DNA from: a virus
Reading direction: 5' to 3' (one strand)
UHGV virus genome: UHGV-0149822
Length of the DNA stretch: 12,028 bases
Numbering within the stretch: position 1 is the first letter of the stretch; each line of letters begins with the position of its first letter. The position numbers and the translations under genes were made by a program. This document shows, one piece after another, positions 1,592-10,956 of the stretch. A model generated the notes under the pieces. It worked only from the letters and a program-made list of their open reading frames with translations, ran no database searches and was not told where the DNA came from.

Positions 1592-3295
<1,704 letters not shown>

Positions 3296-3471: not shown

Positions 3472-3534
3472 GTCTAGACTCAAGGTCATTCACATAGAGT
3501 GGCCTTTATGATTAGACTAAACGGAGGATTAACC

Positions 3535-3936
3535 ATGTTTGATTGCATTGAGTGGAACGGGTGCCGAGACCGTTTCGGATACGGTATGCGAAAGGTCAAC
3601 GGGAAAGTCCGTAGACTACATCTAATAGCCTTCGAGGAGGCGAACGGTCCGATACCTGAAGGAATGGTCGTGCGACATAAGTGTGACAACCCATCGTGTT
3701 ACAACCCAGCACACTTAGAGCTGGGGACACGGGCCGACAACAATCGTGATAGAGACGTAAGAGGTCGAACCGCTAAGGGAGTGAGGCATGGGAGTTCTAG
3801 GCTTACACCTGAAATAATACAAGAGGCCAAGGTGCTCTACGCAGGAGGTGGATGGACTCACCGCTCCCTAGGTGAGAAGTATGGAGTGGGACACCGCACG
3901 ATAGCTAGAGCAATTGGAGGAGAAACATGGACTTAA
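3535..3936 (+). CDS. HNH homing-endonuclease-like protein with C-terminal HTH-like region (copy 1)
   Basis: HNH motif RHKCDNPSCYNPAHLELGTRADN visible. SD GGAGG (3523-3527) 7 nt before ATG 3535; the track frame opens earlier at GTG 3499. Stop TAA 3934-3936 overlaps the DNA polymerase start by 10 nt. Confidence 0.85.
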   Translation: MFDCIEWNGCRDRFGYGMRKVNGKVRRLHLIAFEEANGPIPEGMVVRHKCDNPSCYNPAHLELGTRADNNRDRDVRGRTAKGVRHGSSRLTPEIIQEAKVLYAGGGWTHRSLGEKYGVGHRTIARAIGGETWT

Positions 3937-6095
3937 GTAACGTATACGGGTCTGACATCGAGACCAACGGTCTCCTTGATACAGTCTCCCAGTTTCACTG
4001 TGGGGTCCTGATTAACGCCGAGTCGAATGAGACCCTTAAGTATGGGGTAGCTCCGATGGTCGGTATCGTCGGTGGCTTCAAAGAGTATGTTCAGAAGGTG
4101 GAAGAGATTGCCGCATCACCTGATGGTATGCTGGTATTCCACAACGGTATCAACTATGACGTCCCTGCTATTGACAAGCTGAAACGTCTGTACTTTGGGA
4201 AACGATTTAACTTCCCGAAACACAAGATGATTGATACCTTGGTGCTCGCCCGCTTGATGTATCCAAACATTAAGTTCTCAGACATGGGCGCGGTGAAATC
4301 TGGTCGTCTGCCACCTAAGATGATGGGACGCCAGTCTCTTGAGGCTTGGGGTTATCGTCTCGGTGAGATGAAAGGTGAATACAAACACGATTACGTTGCC
4401 AAGTGCAAGGCTGAAGGTATCGAATATAAGGCTGGGGACGAATGGTTGTTCCCGTCTCAGGAGATGCTGGACTATAACGTTCAAGACGTTGTGGTCACGC
4501 TGGCGTTGCTCAAGAAGTTCCTGACTGACAAGTATTACTTCCAGTCTGAACAGTTCGCTTTCGACCAGATTTATGCGTTGCGTCTGGAACATGATGCTGC
4601 GTGGACCTGTGCGAAGATGGAACGTAACGGCTATCCGATGAACACCGAGATGGTCGAAGGCTTATATCGTGAACTCACCGTCAAACGTGCAGAGTTGCTG
4701 GACAAGCTGCGTTCGACTTTCGGTAGCTGGTACGCACCAAAGGGAGGCAAGGAGTTCTTCAAGCACCCACGGACAGGCAAGGACCTTCCGAAGTATCCGC
4801 GAGTCGTGTATCCTAAGGTCGGGTCAGTATTCAAGAAGCCGAAGAACAAAGCTCAACGCTTAGGTCTGGAGCCTTGCGAGTTCGACTCACGAGACACAAT
4901 GGAAGGAGCACCATTCACGCCAATAACTTACGTTGAGTTTAATCCGGGAAGCGGAGACCACTTAGCGAAAGTCCTGATGGAGCGTGGCTGGGAGCCTGTG
5001 GACTTCACTGACACCGGGAAACCTGTAGTCGATGACGAGACGTTAGAGCACGTTAAGTTGCCAGACGCAGAGGCTCAGGCTTGCGTAGAGCTGGTCCGTG
5101 AGTATCTGGTAGTCCAGAAGCGCATCGGTCAGGCGGCTGAAGGTAAGAACGCATGGTTGAAACTTGTAGGTCCAGACGGACGTATGCACGGTTCAATCAA
5201 CCCATGCGGGGCAGTAACCGGACGTGCGACTCATAGTTCACCAAACATGGCTCAGGTCCCGGCTAATGGTGCTCCATATGGTGAGATTTGCCGTGGTGCT
5301 TTCGGTGCAGCTTGGAACAAGACGGATGGTACGCCAGACCCTTGGATTCAAGTGGGTGTGGATGCTTCAGGTCTTGAGCTTCGTTGTCTTGGGAACAGAG
5401 CGGCTCCGTTTGATGGTGGTGCATATGCGAAGAATGTGGTCGAAGGTGACATCCACTGGGCCAACGCAGTAAACGCTGGGTTAGCACCTAACGTCCCACG
5501 CGATAAGTCGAGCCACGACCATGATGCTTTCCGTAACAACGCTAAGACGTTCATCTATGCGTTCCTGTACGGTGCAGGGGCCGCTAAGATTGGACTGATA
5601 GTAGGCGGTGGGAAGAAGGAAGGTTCAGCTCTCATGAAGAAATTCATTGAGGGTACACCAGCCATCAAAGACCTCAGGGAAGCTGTGAGCAATACGTTAA
5701 TCTCAGACTCTAAGTGGGTGGACGGTGAGAATATCGTTAAGTGGAAACGCCGTTGGTTGCGTGGACTTGATGGTCGCCGTATCCACATCCGGTCACCGCA
5801 CTCAGCACTGAACGCCTTACTTCAAGGCGATGGTGCGGTAGTCTGTAAGCACTGGATTGTCGAGACTGAACGTATGCTCGAAGAGGCCGGGTATGTTCAC
5901 GGCTGGGAAGGTGACTTTGCGTACATGGCTTGGGTACATGATGAATTGCAGATTGCGTGTCGTACTCAGGAGATTGCTGAAGAAGTCGTCAAGATTGCTC
6001 AGCTTGCTATGCGTAAGGTGGGTGAGTTCTATAACTTTAAATGTGTCCTTGATACCGAAGGTAAGATTGGACCAACGTGGAAGGAGTGTCACTAA
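3927..6095 (+). CDS. gp5: DNA polymerase, family A with 3'-5' exonuclease domain (T7 gene 5 homolog)
   Basis: 722 aa. Exo I motif (SDIETNGL), Pol motif A (GVDASGLELR), motif B (KTFIYAFLYGAG), motif C (AWVHDELQ), and a lysine-rich insertion (PKYPRVVYPKVGSVFKKPKNKAQR) corresponding to the T7 thioredoxin-binding loop. Colinear with T7 gp5 along the whole length. Confidence 0.97.
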   Translation: MDLSNVYGSDIETNGLLDTVSQFHCGVLINAESNETLKYGVAPMVGIVGGFKEYVQKVEEIAASPDGMLVFHNGINYDVPAIDKLKRLYFGKRFNFPKHKMIDTLVLARLMYPNIKFSDMGAVKSGRLPPKMMGRQSLEAWGYRLGEMKGEYKHDYVAKCKAEGIEYKAGDEWLFPSQEMLDYNVQDVVVTLALLKKFLTDKYYFQSEQFAFDQIYALRLEHDAAWTCAKMERNGYPMNTEMVEGLYRELTVKRAELLDKLRSTFGSWYAPKGGKEFFKHPRTGKDLPKYPRVVYPKVGSVFKKPKNKAQRLGLEPCEFDSRDTMEGAPFTPITYVEFNPGSGDHLAKVLMERGWEPVDFTDTGKPVVDDETLEHVKLPDAEAQACVELVREYLVVQKRIGQAAEGKNAWLKLVGPDGRMHGSINPCGAVTGRATHSSPNMAQVPANGAPYGEICRGAFGAAWNKTDGTPDPWIQVGVDASGLELRCLGNRAAPFDGGAYAKNVVEGDIHWANAVNAGLAPNVPRDKSSHDHDAFRNNAKTFIYAFLYGAGAAKIGLIVGGGKKEGSALMKKFIEGTPAIKDLREAVSNTLISDSKWVDGENIVKWKRRWLRGLDGRRIHIRSPHSALNALLQGDGAVVCKHWIVETERMLEEAGYVHGWEGDFAYMAWVHDELQIACRTQEIAEEVVKIAQLAMRKVGEFYNFKCVLDTEGKIGPTWKECH

Positions 6096-6379
6096 TGGCT
6101 ATTACTAAACGTATTCGTGTGAGTTTTGACCTGAAGATGGTTGTTAACTCAAAGGCAGAAGAGACCGTGTGTCGCCAACTGGCTGAGATGACTAAAGCCT
6201 ACGCTGGTGGTGAGAAGTTGGATGGGCTTCAGTTGGCTCTGGTCAAAGCAGCAATCGAGTCAGGCCCTGAGTCTGCCATTGAAATTGTCGCCAAGAAGCA
6301 CATCAAGGAAGAGCTGGTAGACGCCTTTGGTGATGGCCAGTTAGGTGTGTCCAACCTGCGATTCGAGGTCAAGCAATGA
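6095..6379 (+). CDS. Small protein at the gene 5.5 position (T7 gp5.5 is an H-NS-binding protein); start uncertain
   Basis: SD AAGGAG (6081-6086) 8 nt before ATG 6095, which overlaps the polymerase stop (TAATG). The track opens the frame at 6077. Assignment is mainly by synteny and size (94 aa). Confidence 0.6.
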   Translation: MAITKRIRVSFDLKMVVNSKAEETVCRQLAEMTKAYAGGEKLDGLQLALVKAAIESGPESAIEIVAKKHIKEELVDAFGDGQLGVSNLRFEVKQ

Positions 6380-6585
6380 GTGAATACTTACGGGTCCTAG
6401 CGGCCCTTAAGTCCTGCCCGAAGACCTTCCAGTCCAACTACGTGCGAAACAACGCTGCACTTGTGGCTGAGGCTTCGAGCCGTGGACATCTAAGCTGCCT
6501 GTCTATGGATGGGCGTAACAACGGTGCGTGGGAGATTACCGCTGCTGGCACCAAGTTCCTGAACCAACACGGAGGCTGTCTATGA
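6376..6585 (+). CDS. T7 gp5.7-like small protein (in T7, an inhibitor of sigma-S RNA polymerase)
   Basis: 69 aa, MSEYLRVLAALKSCPKTFQSNYVRNNAALVAEASSRGH...GAWEITAAGTKFL, closely resembling T7 gp5.7 as I recall it. ATG overlaps the upstream stop (ATGA). Confidence 0.7.
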   Translation: MSEYLRVLAALKSCPKTFQSNYVRNNAALVAEASSRGHLSCLSMDGRNNGAWEITAAGTKFLNQHGGCL

Positions 6586-6818
6586 GTGAACTGGATTTAC
6601 TGAAGAAGTTTGACGAGCTTATGTCACTCCTTAATGGTGAAGAGAACTCAATGGCTGAAGAGTTCCGCGAGGCTCTAGCAGCTAAGTTAGACCGTGCCGC
6701 TGATGATAGACTCTGGCGTGAGTGCTTGGCTGGTGGCGGGGTGGACAACTGGTCTGGGTTCTATGAGTCACTGTCTGAAGGTGGATACTACAAGGAGGAC
6801 GACGATGACTTCGAATAA
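6582..6818 (+). CDS. Acidic 78-aa protein at the gene 5.9 position (T7 gp5.9 is a RecBCD inhibitor); function here unproven
   Basis: SD GGAGG (6571-6575) before ATG 6582, which overlaps the gp5.7-like stop (ATGA). The track opens the frame further upstream at 6528. Strongly acidic, ends ...YYKEDDDDFE. Its stop overlaps the gene 6 start by 14 nt. Confidence 0.55.
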   Translation: MSELDLLKKFDELMSLLNGEENSMAEEFREALAAKLDRAADDRLWRECLAGGGVDNWSGFYESLSEGGYYKEDDDDFE

Positions 6819-7674
6819 GAAGATAGCTCTGGTTCTGGATGGTGACTATCTGGTCTTCTCTTCTATGGCTGCTGCCGAGGACGAGACAGACTGGGGTGAT
6901 GACATCTGGACCCTTATCTGCGACCATGAGAAGGCTCGTCGTATCCTTGAGAACACCATCGCTGAAATCGTTAAGAAGCGCAAGGCGTGGAAAGACGCTA
7001 AGATTGTGATGTGTTTTACTGACGATAATAACTGGCGTAAGGACGTTCTTCCTACCTATAAAGCCAACCGTAAAGGTTCTCGCAAGCCTGTAGGTTACAA
7101 GAAGTTCGTAGCAGAAGTGATGGCTGACCCACGGTTCAACAGCTTCCTACGTCCTACGCTTGAGGGTGATGACTGTATGGGTATCATCGGGACCCGACCT
7201 CAGATTGTCGGGTGCGACCATGCGGTTCTGGTGTCCTGTGACAAGGACTTCAAGACCATCCCGAACTGTGAGTTCTTCTGGTTAACCACTGGTGAAATCC
7301 TGAGTCATACGACTGCCGAGGCAGACTACTGGCACATGGAGCAGACCATCAAGGGTGACACTACAGATGGCTACGGCGGTATTCCGGGGATGGGTGAGGA
7401 CACTACTCGTGCGTTCCTTGACGAGCCATACTACTTCGTGCAGGAGAGCCGTGAGCTTAAGACTGGTAAGAACAAAGGCCAGATTAAGACTGAGTGGAAG
7501 AAGTATCCGAAGCGTGAAGACATGACGTTGTGGGACTGCATGGTGACTCTGGCTGCTAAAGCTGGGATGACCGAGGAGGAACTTCTGGTCCAAGCTCAGG
7601 TAGCTCGTATTTGTCGAGCCTCCGACTACGACCCTAAGTCCAAGGAGGTCATCCTGTGGACACCATCCATGTAA
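6805..7674 (+). CDS. gp6: 5'-3' exonuclease, FEN-like (T7 gene 6 homolog)
   Basis: SD AAGGAGG (6792-6798) before ATG 6805; the track frame opens at 6694 but homology begins at 6805. LVLDGDYLVFSSMAAAE...CDH.KAR.ILE...KAW...FTD..NWRK...YKANRK...KPVGY...LEGDD.MG...SCDKDFKTIPNC.F.W.TTG.IL...TIKGD.TDGY.GI...GMTEE is colinear with T7 gp6 as I recall it. Confidence 0.93.
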   Translation: MTSNKKIALVLDGDYLVFSSMAAAEDETDWGDDIWTLICDHEKARRILENTIAEIVKKRKAWKDAKIVMCFTDDNNWRKDVLPTYKANRKGSRKPVGYKKFVAEVMADPRFNSFLRPTLEGDDCMGIIGTRPQIVGCDHAVLVSCDKDFKTIPNCEFFWLTTGEILSHTTAEADYWHMEQTIKGDTTDGYGGIPGMGEDTTRAFLDEPYYFVQESRELKTGKNKGQIKTEWKKYPKREDMTLWDCMVTLAAKAGMTEEELLVQAQVARICRASDYDPKSKEVILWTPSM

Positions 7675-8805: not shown

Positions 8806-9046
8806 ATCAATCAGTAAGGCATTCAAGAAAGTGGTGAAAAGTACACTAGGGACCGTTGGTCTTGGCTCTGATGACGCGCCTAAGGTTGTTGAGGCTCAGA
8901 CCCCAGCGGCACCAGTGGAAGTACCGAACGACAAAGTGGAGGATGTGGATACTGAAACAACCGCATCTGACGAGAAGAAAGTGAAGCGTTCCGGTAAGCG
9001 TGGCCTTCAGGTCTCTCGCACCTCTGGTGGCGGTATTTCTATTTGA
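8798..9046 (+). CDS. gp7.3-like protein (in T7 a tail-associated protein needed for adsorption)
   Basis: SD AAGGAG (8785-8790) 7 nt before GTG 8798. Lys-rich N-terminus MGKSISKAFKKVVKS and C-terminal ...SGKRGLQVSRTSGGGISI resemble T7 gp7.3 as I recall it. Confidence 0.65.
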   Translation: MGKSISKAFKKVVKSTLGTVGLGSDDAPKVVEAQTPAAPVEVPNDKVEDVDTETTASDEKKVKRSGKRGLQVSRTSGGGISI

Positions 9047-9459
9047 CCGGGTGCATCGAGTGGAAGTGGGCCAAATCCCCTGATGGGTATGGACAGAAGC
9101 GTATAGACGGAAAGTTAGTGTATATGCACCGACTCGCTTACGCCGATGCCTATGGTCCAATACCTGACGGAATGCTCGTCCGTCACAAATGTGATAACCC
9201 CTCATGTTTCAACGTTAACCACTTAGAGCTGGGGACGCAACGTGATAACATGCAGGACGCTTCAAGTCGAGGTAGGATTAACACTACCAAGAAGGCTAGA
9301 GGTGAATCTCAGGGATTATCAGTTTTAACAGAAGACCTTGTTCGAGAAATCCGCAAGTCAACTGTAGGCTGCACGACCTTAGCTCGTGAGCTTGGCGTTA
9401 GTAAGTCTACCGTACTGCGTGTTCGCCAAGGTAAAACATGGAGGCACGTAGATGGCTGA
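9043..9459 (+). CDS. HNH homing-endonuclease-like protein with C-terminal HTH-like region (copy 2; at the T7 gene 7.7 position)
   Basis: HNH motif RHKCDNPSCFNVNHLELGTQRDN. Paralogous to the 3535-3936 protein at protein and nucleotide level. Apparent TTG start at 9043 overlaps the gp7.3-like stop (TTGA); no good SD, suggesting coupled or low-level translation. Stop 9457-9459 overlaps the portal start. Confidence 0.8.
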   Translation: MTGCIEWKWAKSPDGYGQKRIDGKLVYMHRLAYADAYGPIPDGMLVRHKCDNPSCFNVNHLELGTQRDNMQDASSRGRINTTKKARGESQGLSVLTEDLVREIRKSTVGCTTLARELGVSKSTVLRVRQGKTWRHVDG

Positions 9460-9736
9460 ACGTGAAGGATTTGCTGCTGAAGGCGCGAAGGCAGTTTATG
9501 ATAGACTGAAGAACGGTAGACAACCATATGAGACACGCGCTCAGAACTGTGCTTCTGTCACTATCCCGTCACTGTTTCCTAAGGAGTCAGACAACTCGTC
9601 TACGGAATACGTGACGCCGTGGCAAGCTGTAGGTGCTCGCTGTTTGAACAACTTGGCTGCAAAGCTGATGTTGGCGTTATTCCAGAGGCTGCTGCTCGTG
9701 TTGACGAAGGGCTGGCTATGGTCGAGCGTGTGTTGA
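9452..9736 (+). CDS. gp8: Head-to-tail connector (portal) protein, N-terminal fragment (T7 gene 8 homolog); frame terminates prematurely
   Basis: SD GGAGG (9438-9442) before ATG 9452. MAEREGFAAEGAKAVYDRLKNGRQPYETRAQNCASVTIPSLFPKESDN.STEY.TPWQAVGAR.LNNLAAKLMLALF matches the T7 gp8 N-terminus. Similarity stops after F (9680-9682); the frame then reads QRLLLVLTKGWLWSSVC and stops at 9734-9736. Confidence 0.85.
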   Translation: MAEREGFAAEGAKAVYDRLKNGRQPYETRAQNCASVTIPSLFPKESDNSSTEYVTPWQAVGARCLNNLAAKLMLALFQRLLLVLTKGWLWSSVC

Positions 9737-10956
9737 TGGCCTACATGGAGACTAACAGTTTCCGTGTCCCATTGTTCGAAGCTCTGAAGCAGCTTATCGT
9801 CTCCGGTAACTGTCTGCTCTACATTCCAGAGCCTGAACAGGGTACTTATAGTCCTATGCGAATGTACCGCTTAGTGTCCTACGTTGTTCAACGTGATGCT
9901 TTCGGTAACATCTTGCAGATTGTGACTCTCGACAAGGTAGCGTTTAGTGCTCTACCGGAAGACGTGAAGTCTCAACTCAACGCAGACGACTATGAGCCTG
10001 ACACCGAGCTGGAAGTATATACGCACATCTACCGTCAGGACGACGAGTATCTGCGCTACGAGGAAGTGGAAGGAATTGAGGTAGCAGGGACCGAGGGTTC
10101 TTACCCACTGACTGCATGTCCGTACATCCCTGTACGAATGGTTCGACTGGATGGTGAAGACTATGGTCGTTCTTACTGCGAGGAGTATCTGGGAGACCTT
10201 AACTCGCTGGAGACGATTACAGAAGCTATCACCAAAATGGCTAAGGTAGCCTCCAAGGTGGTGGGCCTCGTTAACCCGAACGGTATCACGCAACCTCGTC
10301 GTCTGAACAAGGCGGCTACAGGTGAGTTCGTTGCTGGTCGCGTCGAGGACATCAACTTCCTGCAACTGACGAAAGGTCAGGACTTTACGATTGCCAAGTC
10401 GGTGGCTGATGCTATCGAGCAACGTTTAGGCTGGGCCTTCCTTCTTAATAGTGCTGTTCAGCGTAATGCCGAGCGAGTCACTGCTGAAGAGATTCGTTAT
10501 GTTGCTGGCGAACTGGAGGCGACCTTAGGTGGCGTGTACTCAGTACAGTCACAAGAGCTTCAGTTGCCTATCGTCCGTGTACTGATGAACCAGCTTCAGT
10601 CTGCTGGCATGATTCCTGACCTTCCGAAAGAAGCGGTAGAGCCTACGGTCTCCACTGGTCTGGAAGCTCTGGGCCGTGGTCAGGACTTGGAGAAGCTGAC
10701 TCAGGCGGTTAACATGATGACTGGTCTCCAGCCGCTAGCTCAGGACCCGGACATCAACTTGCCGACCCTTAAGCTGCGACTCCTGAACGCTCTAGGCATC
10801 GACACCGCTGGCCTACTCCTGACGCAAGACGAGAAGATTCAGCGCATGGCTGAGCAGTCGTCTCAACAGGCAGTTGTCCAAGGTGCGTCTGCTGCTGGCG
10901 CTAACATGGGTGCTGCTGTAGGTCAGGGAGCTGGTGAGGACATGGCTCAAGCCTAA
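9619..10956 (+). CDS. gp8: Head-to-tail connector (portal) protein, C-terminal portion in a different frame (T7 gene 8 homolog)
   Basis: From about 9682 (P-E-A-A-A-R-VDEGLAMVERVLMAY...) to the stop at 10954-10956 this frame is colinear with T7 gp8 residues about 105 onward (e.g. YRLVSYVVQRDAFGN, LRYEEVEG, CPYIP.RMVRLDGE.YGRSY.EEYLGDL, GLVNP.GITQPRRL, VTAEEIRYVA.ELE.TLGGVYS, LKLR..NA.GIDT). The first ATG of the ORF (9619) is upstream of where homology resumes. Confidence 0.9.
   Translation: MASCRCSLFEQLGCKADVGVIPEAAARVDEGLAMVERVLMAYMETNSFRVPLFEALKQLIVSGNCLLYIPEPEQGTYSPMRMYRLVSYVVQRDAFGNILQIVTLDKVAFSALPEDVKSQLNADDYEPDTELEVYTHIYRQDDEYLRYEEVEGIEVAGTEGSYPLTACPYIPVRMVRLDGEDYGRSYCEEYLGDLNSLETITEAITKMAKVASKVVGLVNPNGITQPRRLNKAATGEFVAGRVEDINFLQLTKGQDFTIAKSVADAIEQRLGWAFLLNSAVQRNAERVTAEEIRYVAGELEATLGGVYSVQSQELQLPIVRVLMNQLQSAGMIPDLPKEAVEPTVSTGLEALGRGQDLEKLTQAVNMMTGLQPLAQDPDINLPTLKLRLLNALGIDTAGLLLTQDEKIQRMAEQSSQQAVVQGASAAGANMGAAVGQGAGEDMAQA

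Follow-up and report, generated by a model that had tools for sequence, protein, structure and literature searches.

A short cassette at the 5.7/6 junction of a K1F-like phage encodes a two-module acidic protein of the gp5.9 family, a candidate DNA-mimic decoy

Introduction

What is the role of the small acidic protein that is encoded between genes 5.7 and 6 in the virus genome UHGV-0149822? The 12,028-nucleotide (nt) stretch of this genome that was analysed here (hereafter the window) is part of a K1F-like relative of phage T7 in the genus Kayfunavirus, and its best DNA matches are the Kayfunavirus phages PDP351P4 (94.9%) and CLB_P1 (92.5%). The gene in question occupies the slot that T7 fills with gene 5.9. 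The T7 product, gp5.9, is a DNA mimic that blocks the DNA site of the host enzyme RecBCD through ion pairs of aspartate or glutamate with arginine or lysine (PMC9836394), and it also blocks MukE (PMC7617805).

A first-pass annotation, made from the letters of the window, had described the protein as small, strongly acidic and located at the gene 5.9 position, and had likened its phenylalanine-containing acidic tail to the C-terminal tails of replisome proteins. It was proposed that the protein might mimic either DNA or such a tail. The description of the gene and the presence of the tail are borne out by the analysis reported here, whereas the likeness to replisome tails is not. A DNA-mimic or host-nuclease-inhibitor role is our best guess for the protein because of its slot, its T7-like acidity, its score against the Pfam family PF25708 and a homology chain that leads to T7 gp5.9.

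Results

The 5.9-slot gene and its family

The reading frame of gene 5.9 in the window begins with an ATG at position 6582 and ends with a TAA at 6816-6818 (78 codons plus the stop). Its product, MSELDLLKKFDELMSLLNGEENSMAEEFREALAAKLDRAADDRLWRECLAGGGVDNWSGFYESLSEGGYYKEDDDDFE, carries 22 aspartate or glutamate residues and 8 lysine or arginine residues, which gives a net charge of -14 and an isoelectric point (pI) of 4.09, nearly equal to the 4.08 of T7 gp5.9. The C-terminal end is GGYYKEDDDDFE, with KEDDDDFE as the last residues. The start codon overlaps the stop codon of gene 5.7 within the sequence ATGA (6582-6585), and the far end of the gene overlaps gene 6 by 14 nt, as it also does in T7 and T3. 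Near-identical copies are present in six Kayfunavirus genomes. The ratio of nonsynonymous to synonymous differences (pN/pS) is 0.07-0.37 in sequence pairs that are divergent enough for comparison (pS at least 0.15), and on this basis gene 5.9 is real and under constraint.

The protein matches PF25708 (Phage_T7_Gp5_9, "T7 gp5.9 RecBCD inhibitor") with 37.7 bits (E=2e-9), and residues 21-74 align to profile positions 3-46. The curated gathering threshold of this family is 24.5 bits; for scale, its core members score 45-74 bits, Kvp1 scores 72.5 and T7 gp5.9 scores 27.8. The protein also falls into PHROG 6163 ("unknown function"; phrog_6163, E=1.9e-20), and a comparison with NCBIfam yielded no match. 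The PF25708 model is centred on proteins of 50-60 amino acids with the pattern TVTI(T/P)(K/R)xEYxxL...CLExGGVDNWx[GW]YxESLxxGGYF followed by an acidic run. The signature C-terminal (C) module of the family, consisting of a helix, a [CA]LExGGVDNW turn and an x[GW][YF]xxSL helix, is present in the window protein. The TVTI(T/P)(K/R) N-terminal strand of the core members and of T7 gp5.9 is not, and an unrelated N-terminal (N) module stands there instead.

The gene is already represented in databases, where it is listed under PF25708 and, in CLB_P1, as the hypothetical protein gp5.8, and is therefore not of a new kind. Three aspects appear to be new: the two-module architecture of the protein, the series of mosaic proteins that connects it with T7 gp5.9, and the status of T7 gp5.9, the sole characterised member of PF25708, as an outlier without the family signature.

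Two-module anatomy

An exhaustive HMMER search, in which a profile of close homologues was compared with 1.84 billion representatives, returned 135 matches, many of them partial. The N module has the consensus FDxLMSHLNxEENxMAxEFR, in which L13, L17, N18, E20, N22 and A25 are near-invariant. It is a shuffled unit that is elsewhere fused to unrelated C-termini, as in P0068 and P0076 (with phrog_13236) and P0123 (with phrog_24684); these three and P0044 are N-only proteins. The C module likewise occurs in several settings, namely alone behind a TVTI strand, as a tandem pair, at the end of the 409-amino-acid coiled-coil protein Bcep22 gp31 and at the end of a 534-amino-acid YqaJ exonuclease. When the C-only family was aligned with the window family by hhalign, a match with a probability of 99.2% was obtained over window residues 36-78. 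Residues V54, D55, N56 and W57 are invariant in an alignment of 96 sequences, and G53 is conserved in at least 90%.

An AlphaFold2 (AF2) monomer model based on the 96-sequence alignment has a predicted local distance difference test score (pLDDT) of 81 and a predicted template modelling score (pTM) of 0.62. Helices are predicted at residues 3-16, 23-52 and 57-66, with no secondary structure past residue 66 and with pLDDT values below 50 at residues 75-78. A Foldseek search of the PDB with this model gave no gp5.9 match (best E 3.8), and a search of BFVD retrieved sequence homologues only.

Other arrangements of the C module were also seen. Proteins of ~200 amino acids carry two tandem GGVDNW modules (e.g. 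P0060, P0071, P0081, P0082, P0084, P0102, P0104, P0106 and P0127), after which comes a conserved domain of ~120 amino acids (...WKRxTFPKEFxKAxK...); these proteins have no Pfam or PHROG annotation beyond the modules. In the 534-amino-acid gp15 of Bacillus phage Dartukuta (L022 1031-2635), an N-terminal YqaJ exonuclease domain (residues 12-144) is joined through a long linker to a complete PF25708 module at the C-terminus (ELITITKAEY...NAGVDNWSGYSYAM; 62 bits), and the gene adjoins RecT. In SPO1, the gene for gp21.6, which carries a PF25708 module, lies between SbcD-like and SbcC-like genes. Three matches of the HMMER search (P0051, P0120 and P0136) were discarded, being repeat proteins that match via a short W-containing repeat.

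A mosaic bridge to T7 gp5.9

When T7 gp5.9 was used as a tblastn query, gp5.9-annotated proteins were retrieved from Berlinvirus and Klebsiella Teetrevirus genomes whose match is limited to T7 residues 4-30. The Kvp1 gp5.9 protein, MSLHTDNVTVTREAWNDMQSYIQSLEKDQEFLNALRACGVDNWDGYSDAIEMVYGEDDE, has a T7-like N-terminal half that is joined to a GVDNW C module. By hhalign, the type represented by Kvp1, Yepe2 and vB8388 aligns with the T7 type over T7 residues 1-30 (probability 98.5%, E 2.9e-15) and with the window type over window residues 30-74 (probability 98.7%, E 4.4e-16). Kvp1 gp5.9 also matches four PHROGs: 4790, 6234, 9014 (T7-type) and 6163 (window-type). An interim view that the T7 and window types share no segment was revised when this bridge was found, and the homology chain from the window protein through the Kvp1/Yepe2 type to T7 gp5.9 is, as judged from profile alignments, statistically solid. 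Searches of PDB sequences with the C-only and N+C profiles gave no real match, and gp5.9 chains were not reached at E<=10.

Given these bridging homologies in both halves, the 5.9 slot of T7-like phages can be described as a mosaic series of at least three interchangeable pieces. Type A (T7, T3) comprises the strand and a long acidic coiled coil. Type B (Kvp1, Yepe2, vB8388) comprises the strand, a helix, GVDNW and an acidic tail. Type C, to which the window protein belongs together with those of some other Kayfunaviruses, Pectobacterium phage PcCB251 and Klebsiella phage P510, comprises the N module, a helix, GVDNW, helix 3, GGYY and an acidic tail.

The window protein and the T7/T3 gp5.9 proteins (PDB 8B1R, 9GMD; PHROG 9014) are thus linked by a mosaic chain, and they are alike in their 5.7/6 slot, 14-nt overlap, pI of about 4.1 and Pfam family; both are small, non-essential and variably present. 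However, T7 gp5.9 has 52 amino acids, compared with 78 in the window, and ends ...EEKLNGTS. It is built from an N-terminal TVTIPR beta-strand and one long coiled-coil helix, and it has no GGVDNW turn, helix 3, GGYY or acidic tail. In contrast, neither the strand nor the acidic C-terminal coiled coil is present in the window protein, which begins with the unrelated N module.

The type B proteins (Kvp1, Yepe2 and Klebsiella vB8388; PHROG 4790) share with the window protein the slot, the C module and the acidic tail, which ends ...YGEDDE, but they differ in their T7-like N-terminal half (DNVTVTREAWNDMQSYIQSLEKD), in a 4-nt overlap with gene 6 and in having no phenylalanine in the tail. Their annotation as 'host RecBCD nuclease inhibitor' was assigned by transfer, and the same labels on PHROGs 6234 and 4790 appear to have been transferred via Kvp1-type chimeras. 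The stand-alone TVTI...GGVDNW proteins (PHROG 6234, the PF25708 core; e.g. SPO1 gp21.6 and Bacillus 280BB001 gp44) share the C module, including GGY[YF] and the acidic run. They are only 50-60 amino acids long, have the TVTI strand in place of the N module, and come from phages of Gram-positive and alpha-proteobacterial hosts.

The acidic tail and the replisome

The tails of the primase-helicase gp4 and of gp2.5 dock on a basic patch at the front of the T7 DNA polymerase gp5 (K587, K589, R590 and R591), and a DTDF peptide is present in PDB 6P7E (PMC12339929). If the 5.9 tail mimicked these tails, its docking partner could be the phage DNA polymerase, through its basic patches, or some other protein that binds such tails, and the replisome would be modulated in this way. 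The 5.9 tail is likewise acidic, predicted to be unstructured and located at the extreme C-terminus, and it contains D-F, with D-D-F following the acidic run. The docking site is also present in this phage. The window polymerase (gene 5, 3927-6095) is identical to T7 gp5 at 402 of 704 residues, has a well conserved thioredoxin-binding segment and retains an identical front basic patch (K587, K589, R590, R591 and R599; KWKRRW). In addition, T7 gp2.5 and gp5.9 both trigger the same Sir2-HerA system, a hint of a shared surface property (PMC13434337).

However, phenylalanine is the last residue in all four of the genuine replisome tails that were checked, namely T7 gp2.5 (...EADEDGDF), CLB_P1 gp2.5 (...SSGGDYDF), T7 gp4 (...SNDTDF) and the primase-helicase of the window itself (...WEYTDF; open reading frame (ORF) 1595-3295). 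The C-terminal phenylalanine of gp2.5 is, moreover, called essential in titles cited by PMC12339929. The 5.9 tail ends DDFE, with a glutamate after the phenylalanine. Whereas the phenylalanine of the gp2.5 and gp4 tails is conserved, that of the 5.9 tail is limited to a narrow clade and constrained by the overlap with gene 6. Relatives that are at least 82% identical keep KEDDDDFE, and the phenylalanine is confined to them. Those that are 71-80% identical end KDEDDE, TDEDE, EEDEDDE or DDLE, and more distant members end GEDDE, EDEDDE, SDDE, PEDDDE, GDSEE, EDDEDE or RSDDE. The residue is lost in P0015-P0018, PcCB251, P510, Kc166A, Pistou and others. It occurs within the last three residues of 7 of the 96 sequences in alignment A5, five of which are from the window clade, and an acidic run with a terminal aromatic residue was found in a single one of 72 representatives (P0063, ...GGYFEDDEF).

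The acidic run itself behaves differently from the phenylalanine. At least three of the last six residues are aspartate or glutamate in 42 of the 72 representatives, against 11.5 +/- 3.0 expected from shuffles of each sequence's own composition (maximum 22 in 2000), and the terminal residue is one of these two in 46 of 72, against 17.7 +/- 3.7 in such shuffles. Among the 96 N+C sequences, the terminal residue is glutamate in 66 and aspartate in 10. The run is kept in members that have no overlapping downstream gene, such as Pistou (SDDE), MQM1 (GDSEE, with a 213-nt spacer) and many stand-alone proteins, and the idea that it is a by-product of the gene 6 ribosome-binding site was rejected for this reason. 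These tail statistics indicate that an acidic run ending in glutamate or aspartate is a genuine family trait and the phenylalanine a local peculiarity.

The codon of Phe77 (TTC, 6810-6812) spans codons 2-3 of gene 6 (ACT TCG), which fix it. In the 5.9 frame, the bases GAT GAC TTC GAA TAA read D-D-F-E-stop, and the same bases form the start of gene 6. The final Phe-Glu is a by-product of the overlap of the cassette described below with the gene 6 start and not a replisome-tail mimic. Together with the decay of the CLB_P1 tail to KEYDHDFW, these findings make a role of the 5.9 tail in docking on the polymerase very improbable.

The CLB_P1 copy (L019 401-637) differs within this tail by three non-synonymous changes in eight codons. 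Its Shine-Dalgarno (SD) sequence for gene 6 is weakened to AAGGAGT, and the only change in gp6 is N4G. This suggests that the constraint on the exact tail sequence has been relaxed.

A cassette at a variable junction

In K1F-type genomes, a single C separates ATGAGTGA from AAGAAGATAGCT at the junction of genes 5.7 and 6, whereas in the window the same flanks are separated by 227 nt. The net gain of 226 nt agrees with the spans of this region, which are 775 nt in most Kayfunavirus records and 1001 nt in the window. K1F has no 5.9 gene in the slot between 5.7 and 6. Its gene 6 uses a GGAGG SD sequence and ATGAGTGA, and it is these elements that serve gene 5.9 in the window. The cassette, which is inserted precisely at the 5.7/6 junction, brings gene 6 a new SD sequence, an ATG and its first four codons (MTSN; ACT TCG AAT after the ATG). 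Thus, gp6 starts MSDKK in the K1F type and MTSN-KK in the window. Gene 5.9 is dispensable and variably present, as expected of a host-interaction accessory gene.

The 5.7/6 slot is hypervariable in Kayfunavirus. It is empty in K1F and most relatives, it holds a 151-amino-acid phrog_4382 protein (gp28) with an embedded N-module motif (FWNLMSHLNSEDNDMAHEF) in phiHAO1-1 (841-1296), and it holds an unrelated 91-amino-acid phrog_2251 protein in CY1 (841-1116).

Candidate function

We hypothesize that gene 5.9, a small accessory gene on a cassette in a K1F-like phage, provides a two-module PF25708 protein that would act as a polyanionic DNA-mimic decoy in the DNA-binding site of a host DNA-end-processing enzyme. 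In enterobacterial hosts, this enzyme would be RecBCD. While the co-translated gene 6 exonuclease is at work, the decoy would protect the linear genome of the phage and the intermediates of recombination. Its acidic tail may serve in place of the acidic C-terminal coiled coil with which T7 gp5.9 grips the RecB arm, and the protein may dimerise. By analogy with T7 gp5.9, we give an acidic DNA-mimic decoy against host RecBCD about an even chance of being correct. Lambda Gam is likewise a small acidic DNA mimic directed against RecBCD (PMC9836394), but it has no sequence or fold relationship to the window protein. The host range is consistent with RecBCD as the target: all phages with the N+C type in the annotated phage collection infect Enterobacterales or Aeromonas, both of them RecBCD hosts. 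The recurrent link of the PF25708 module with recombination nucleases, through the Dartukuta YqaJ fusion by RecT and the SbcD/SbcC-like neighbours in SPO1, is a supporting observation.

Several observations weigh against RecBCD as the target. T7 gp5.9, the namesake of PF25708, is only a marginal member of it (27.8 versus 24.5 bits) and resides in PHROG 9014, and at E<=0.01 the model fails to detect the gp5.9 of Yersinia phage Rambo, a divergent T7-type protein, so PF25708 membership says little about the tested function. A BLASTP comparison of the window protein with T7 gp5.9 gave no alignment, and a direct hhalign comparison of the T7 and window types gave no significant alignment (probability 1% and 0.6%). 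The transitive overlap between the two proteins amounts to ~17 helical residues, in which T7 residues 14-30 correspond to window residues 30-46 (T7 residue n = window residue n+16, a register valid for T7 14-30). The RecBCD-contacting acids of T7 gp5.9 are D4, D11, D15, D21, E24, E36, D38, E39 and E45 (PMC9836394 Table 1). In the transitive register, D15 falls on A31, D21 on D37 and E24 on A40, and the other six lie in segments without a counterpart. Because one of nine contact acids (D21 = D37) is matched, the assignment to RecBCD is weaker than the slot suggests.

Predicted structure, host range of the family and motif chemistry point the same way. T7 gp5.9 is a single long helix that forms a parallel coiled-coil dimer braced by N-terminal strands, whereas the AF2 monomer of the window protein has three helices. 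PF25708 modules are often found in phages of the AddAB hosts Bacillus, Enterococcus and Ruegeria, whereas the specificity reported for T7 gp5.9 is for RecBCD over AddAB (PMC9836394). The strictly conserved GVDNW and SHLNxEEN motifs are non-acidic and are not what simple charge mimicry requires. A literature search found no experimental test of any GVDNW-type protein, and nothing relevant on RecBCD inhibitors in Kayfunavirus.

Some of these observations would fit a decoy whose main target is not RecBCD but MukBEF, SbcCD or an immune sensor, with the two modules perhaps addressing two targets. T7 gp5.9 has MukE as a second target, which it binds in a different mode (PMC7617805). Phages combine the N and C modules independently of each other, some phages with the GVDNW module infect hosts that lack RecBCD, and almost none of the residues with which T7 gp5.9 contacts RecBCD are retained. 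However, no positive evidence singles out any one of the alternative targets, the N+C type is seen with RecBCD hosts only, and both the slot and the homology chain point to a gp5.9 function. We therefore regard a different main target as possible, though unlikely.

A further possibility is that PF25708 is not a family of RecBCD inhibitors. In this case, GGVDNW and SHLNxEEN would be independently shuffled effector modules, acting on a target that is conserved across Gram-positive and Gram-negative hosts or on the phage's own recombination nuclease, and T7 gp5.9 would be a derived outlier in which the GGVDNW module disappeared and a long acidic coiled coil arose. Were this so, RecBCD and MukBEF activity would have been wrongly projected onto thousands of proteins, and the function of the window protein would be one not yet described. 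We consider this proposition rather doubtful.

The protein could instead be a cofactor or regulator of the phage gp6 exonuclease or recombination machinery and not an inhibitor of a host enzyme. Gene 5.9 is translationally coupled to gene 6, which receives its ribosome-binding site and first four codons from the cassette. In Dartukuta, the YqaJ exonuclease beside RecT ends in a complete PF25708 module, and SPO1 gp21.6 lies within a cluster of SbcD/SbcC-like nucleases. However, K1F and most Kayfunaviruses have gene 6 without a 5.9 gene, and the gene occurs elsewhere with no adjacent exonuclease: after the dUTPase in Chaseviridae, near PseT and RegB in Ounavirinae, and among replication genes in other phages. 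Host proteins are the targets of T7 gp5.9, the only relative that has been tested. Lambda Gam is encoded beside the phage exonuclease, in the gam-bet-exo arrangement. Because lambda thus shows the same adjacency of an anti-RecBCD gene and an exonuclease, gene context does not discriminate between a gp6 cofactor and a RecBCD inhibitor. On the whole, we judge the cofactor role to be improbable.

The assignment of function in this family has wider consequences. The label 'host RecBCD nuclease inhibitor' is applied to a large phage family (3,113 clusters at E<=1e-3), and it rests on one characterised protein, T7 gp5.9, which is without the signature module and barely passes PF25708. The mosaic of the 5.9 slot constitutes a natural set of chimeras. 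With these, binding to RecBCD or MukBEF could be traced to one of the pieces, and the flexible acidic tail could be compared with the rigid acidic coiled coil of T7 gp5.9 to see if the one can stand in for the other. In candidates for phage therapy among the K1-capsule-specific Kayfunaviruses, the presence or absence of the cassette may affect sensitivity to RecBCD. It may also affect sensitivity to retron Ec48, type III Sir2-HerA and other defences that act as guards of RecBCD or as sensors of gp5.9.

Features of the locus and neighbouring genes

The gene order in the window is lysozyme, primase-helicase, HNH endonuclease, DNA polymerase, 5.5, 5.7, the 5.9-slot gene, gene 6 exonuclease and 6.5. 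Coordinates of the features at and around the slot are collected in Table 1, in which the primase-helicase tail is listed as a control.

Table 1. Features at and around the 5.9 slot of the window, with the evidence for each.
Feature	Position	Strand	Description	Basis
Gene in 5.9 slot	6582..6818	+	78-amino-acid acidic protein, pI 4.09; PF25708 and PHROG 6163	ORF, PF25708, phrog_6163, pN/pS
SD sequence of gene 5.9	6571..6575	+	GGAGG, 6 nt before the ATG	Sequence; junction comparison with K1F
Cassette	6590..6816	.	227 nt with gene 5.9, absent from K1F-type genomes	Junction comparison, record spans
N module	6591..6686	+	Residues 4-35 (LDLLKKFDELMSLLNGEENSMAEEFREALAAK); helix 1, loop and start of helix 2	Partial-length HMMER matches, AF2
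C module core	6687..6779	+	Residues 36-66; C-terminal half of helix 2, GGVDNW turn, helix 3 (WSGFYESLSE)	hhalign, AF2
G-V-D-N-W motif	6738..6752	+	Residues 53-57	Alignment of 96 sequences
GGYY and acidic tail	6780..6815	+	Residues 67-78 (GGYYKEDDDDFE); predicted unstructured	AF2; family tail statistics
Gene 6 initiation region	6792..6807	+	Within the 5.9 tail codons; SD AAGGAGG 6792-6798, ATG 6805-6807	Sequence; six-relative junction alignment
Gene 5.7	6376..6585	+	Upstream neighbour	phrog_1334 E=3.8e-38
Gene 6	6805..7674	+	5'-3' exonuclease, translationally coupled to 5.9	phrog_107 E=1.3e-80, PF02739
Primase-helicase C-terminal tail	3257..3292	+	Terminal phenylalanine; control	ORF 1595-3295

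Three other reading frames near the gene were set aside. The minus-strand ORFs at 6536-6748 and 6682-6927 are considered spurious, since T7-like phages are transcribed from one strand. A GTG-extended frame of gene 6 from 6694 is also spurious, as the SD sequence and homologues fix the gene 6 start at 6805.

Two ORFs that resemble HNH homing endonucleases were noted in the window. One, at 3499-3936, is located between genes 4 and 5, and the polymerase start at 3927 falls within its end. The other, at 9043-9459, lies just upstream of gp8 and overlaps the gp8 start at 9452; in CR44b it is annotated as 7.7 homing endonuclease.

The portal gene gp8 (head-tail connector; 9452-10956) is represented by two ORFs in different frames, 9452-9736 and 9619-10956, with the break near 9686-9697. 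All close relatives have an additional 64 nt here (765 nt, in an alignment of two pieces, versus the 701 nt of 9400-10100 in the window). Since a deletion of 64 nt would shift the frame of an essential gene, the window may contain an assembly error or derive from a defective genome. Across the portal region, the window is also 95% identical to MT350292.1 ('Enterococcus phage EFA-1'), which is labelled as a phage of Enterococcus faecalis. Because this identity is to a Kayfunavirus, the host label of MT350292.1 is doubtful, and the attribution is probably wrong.

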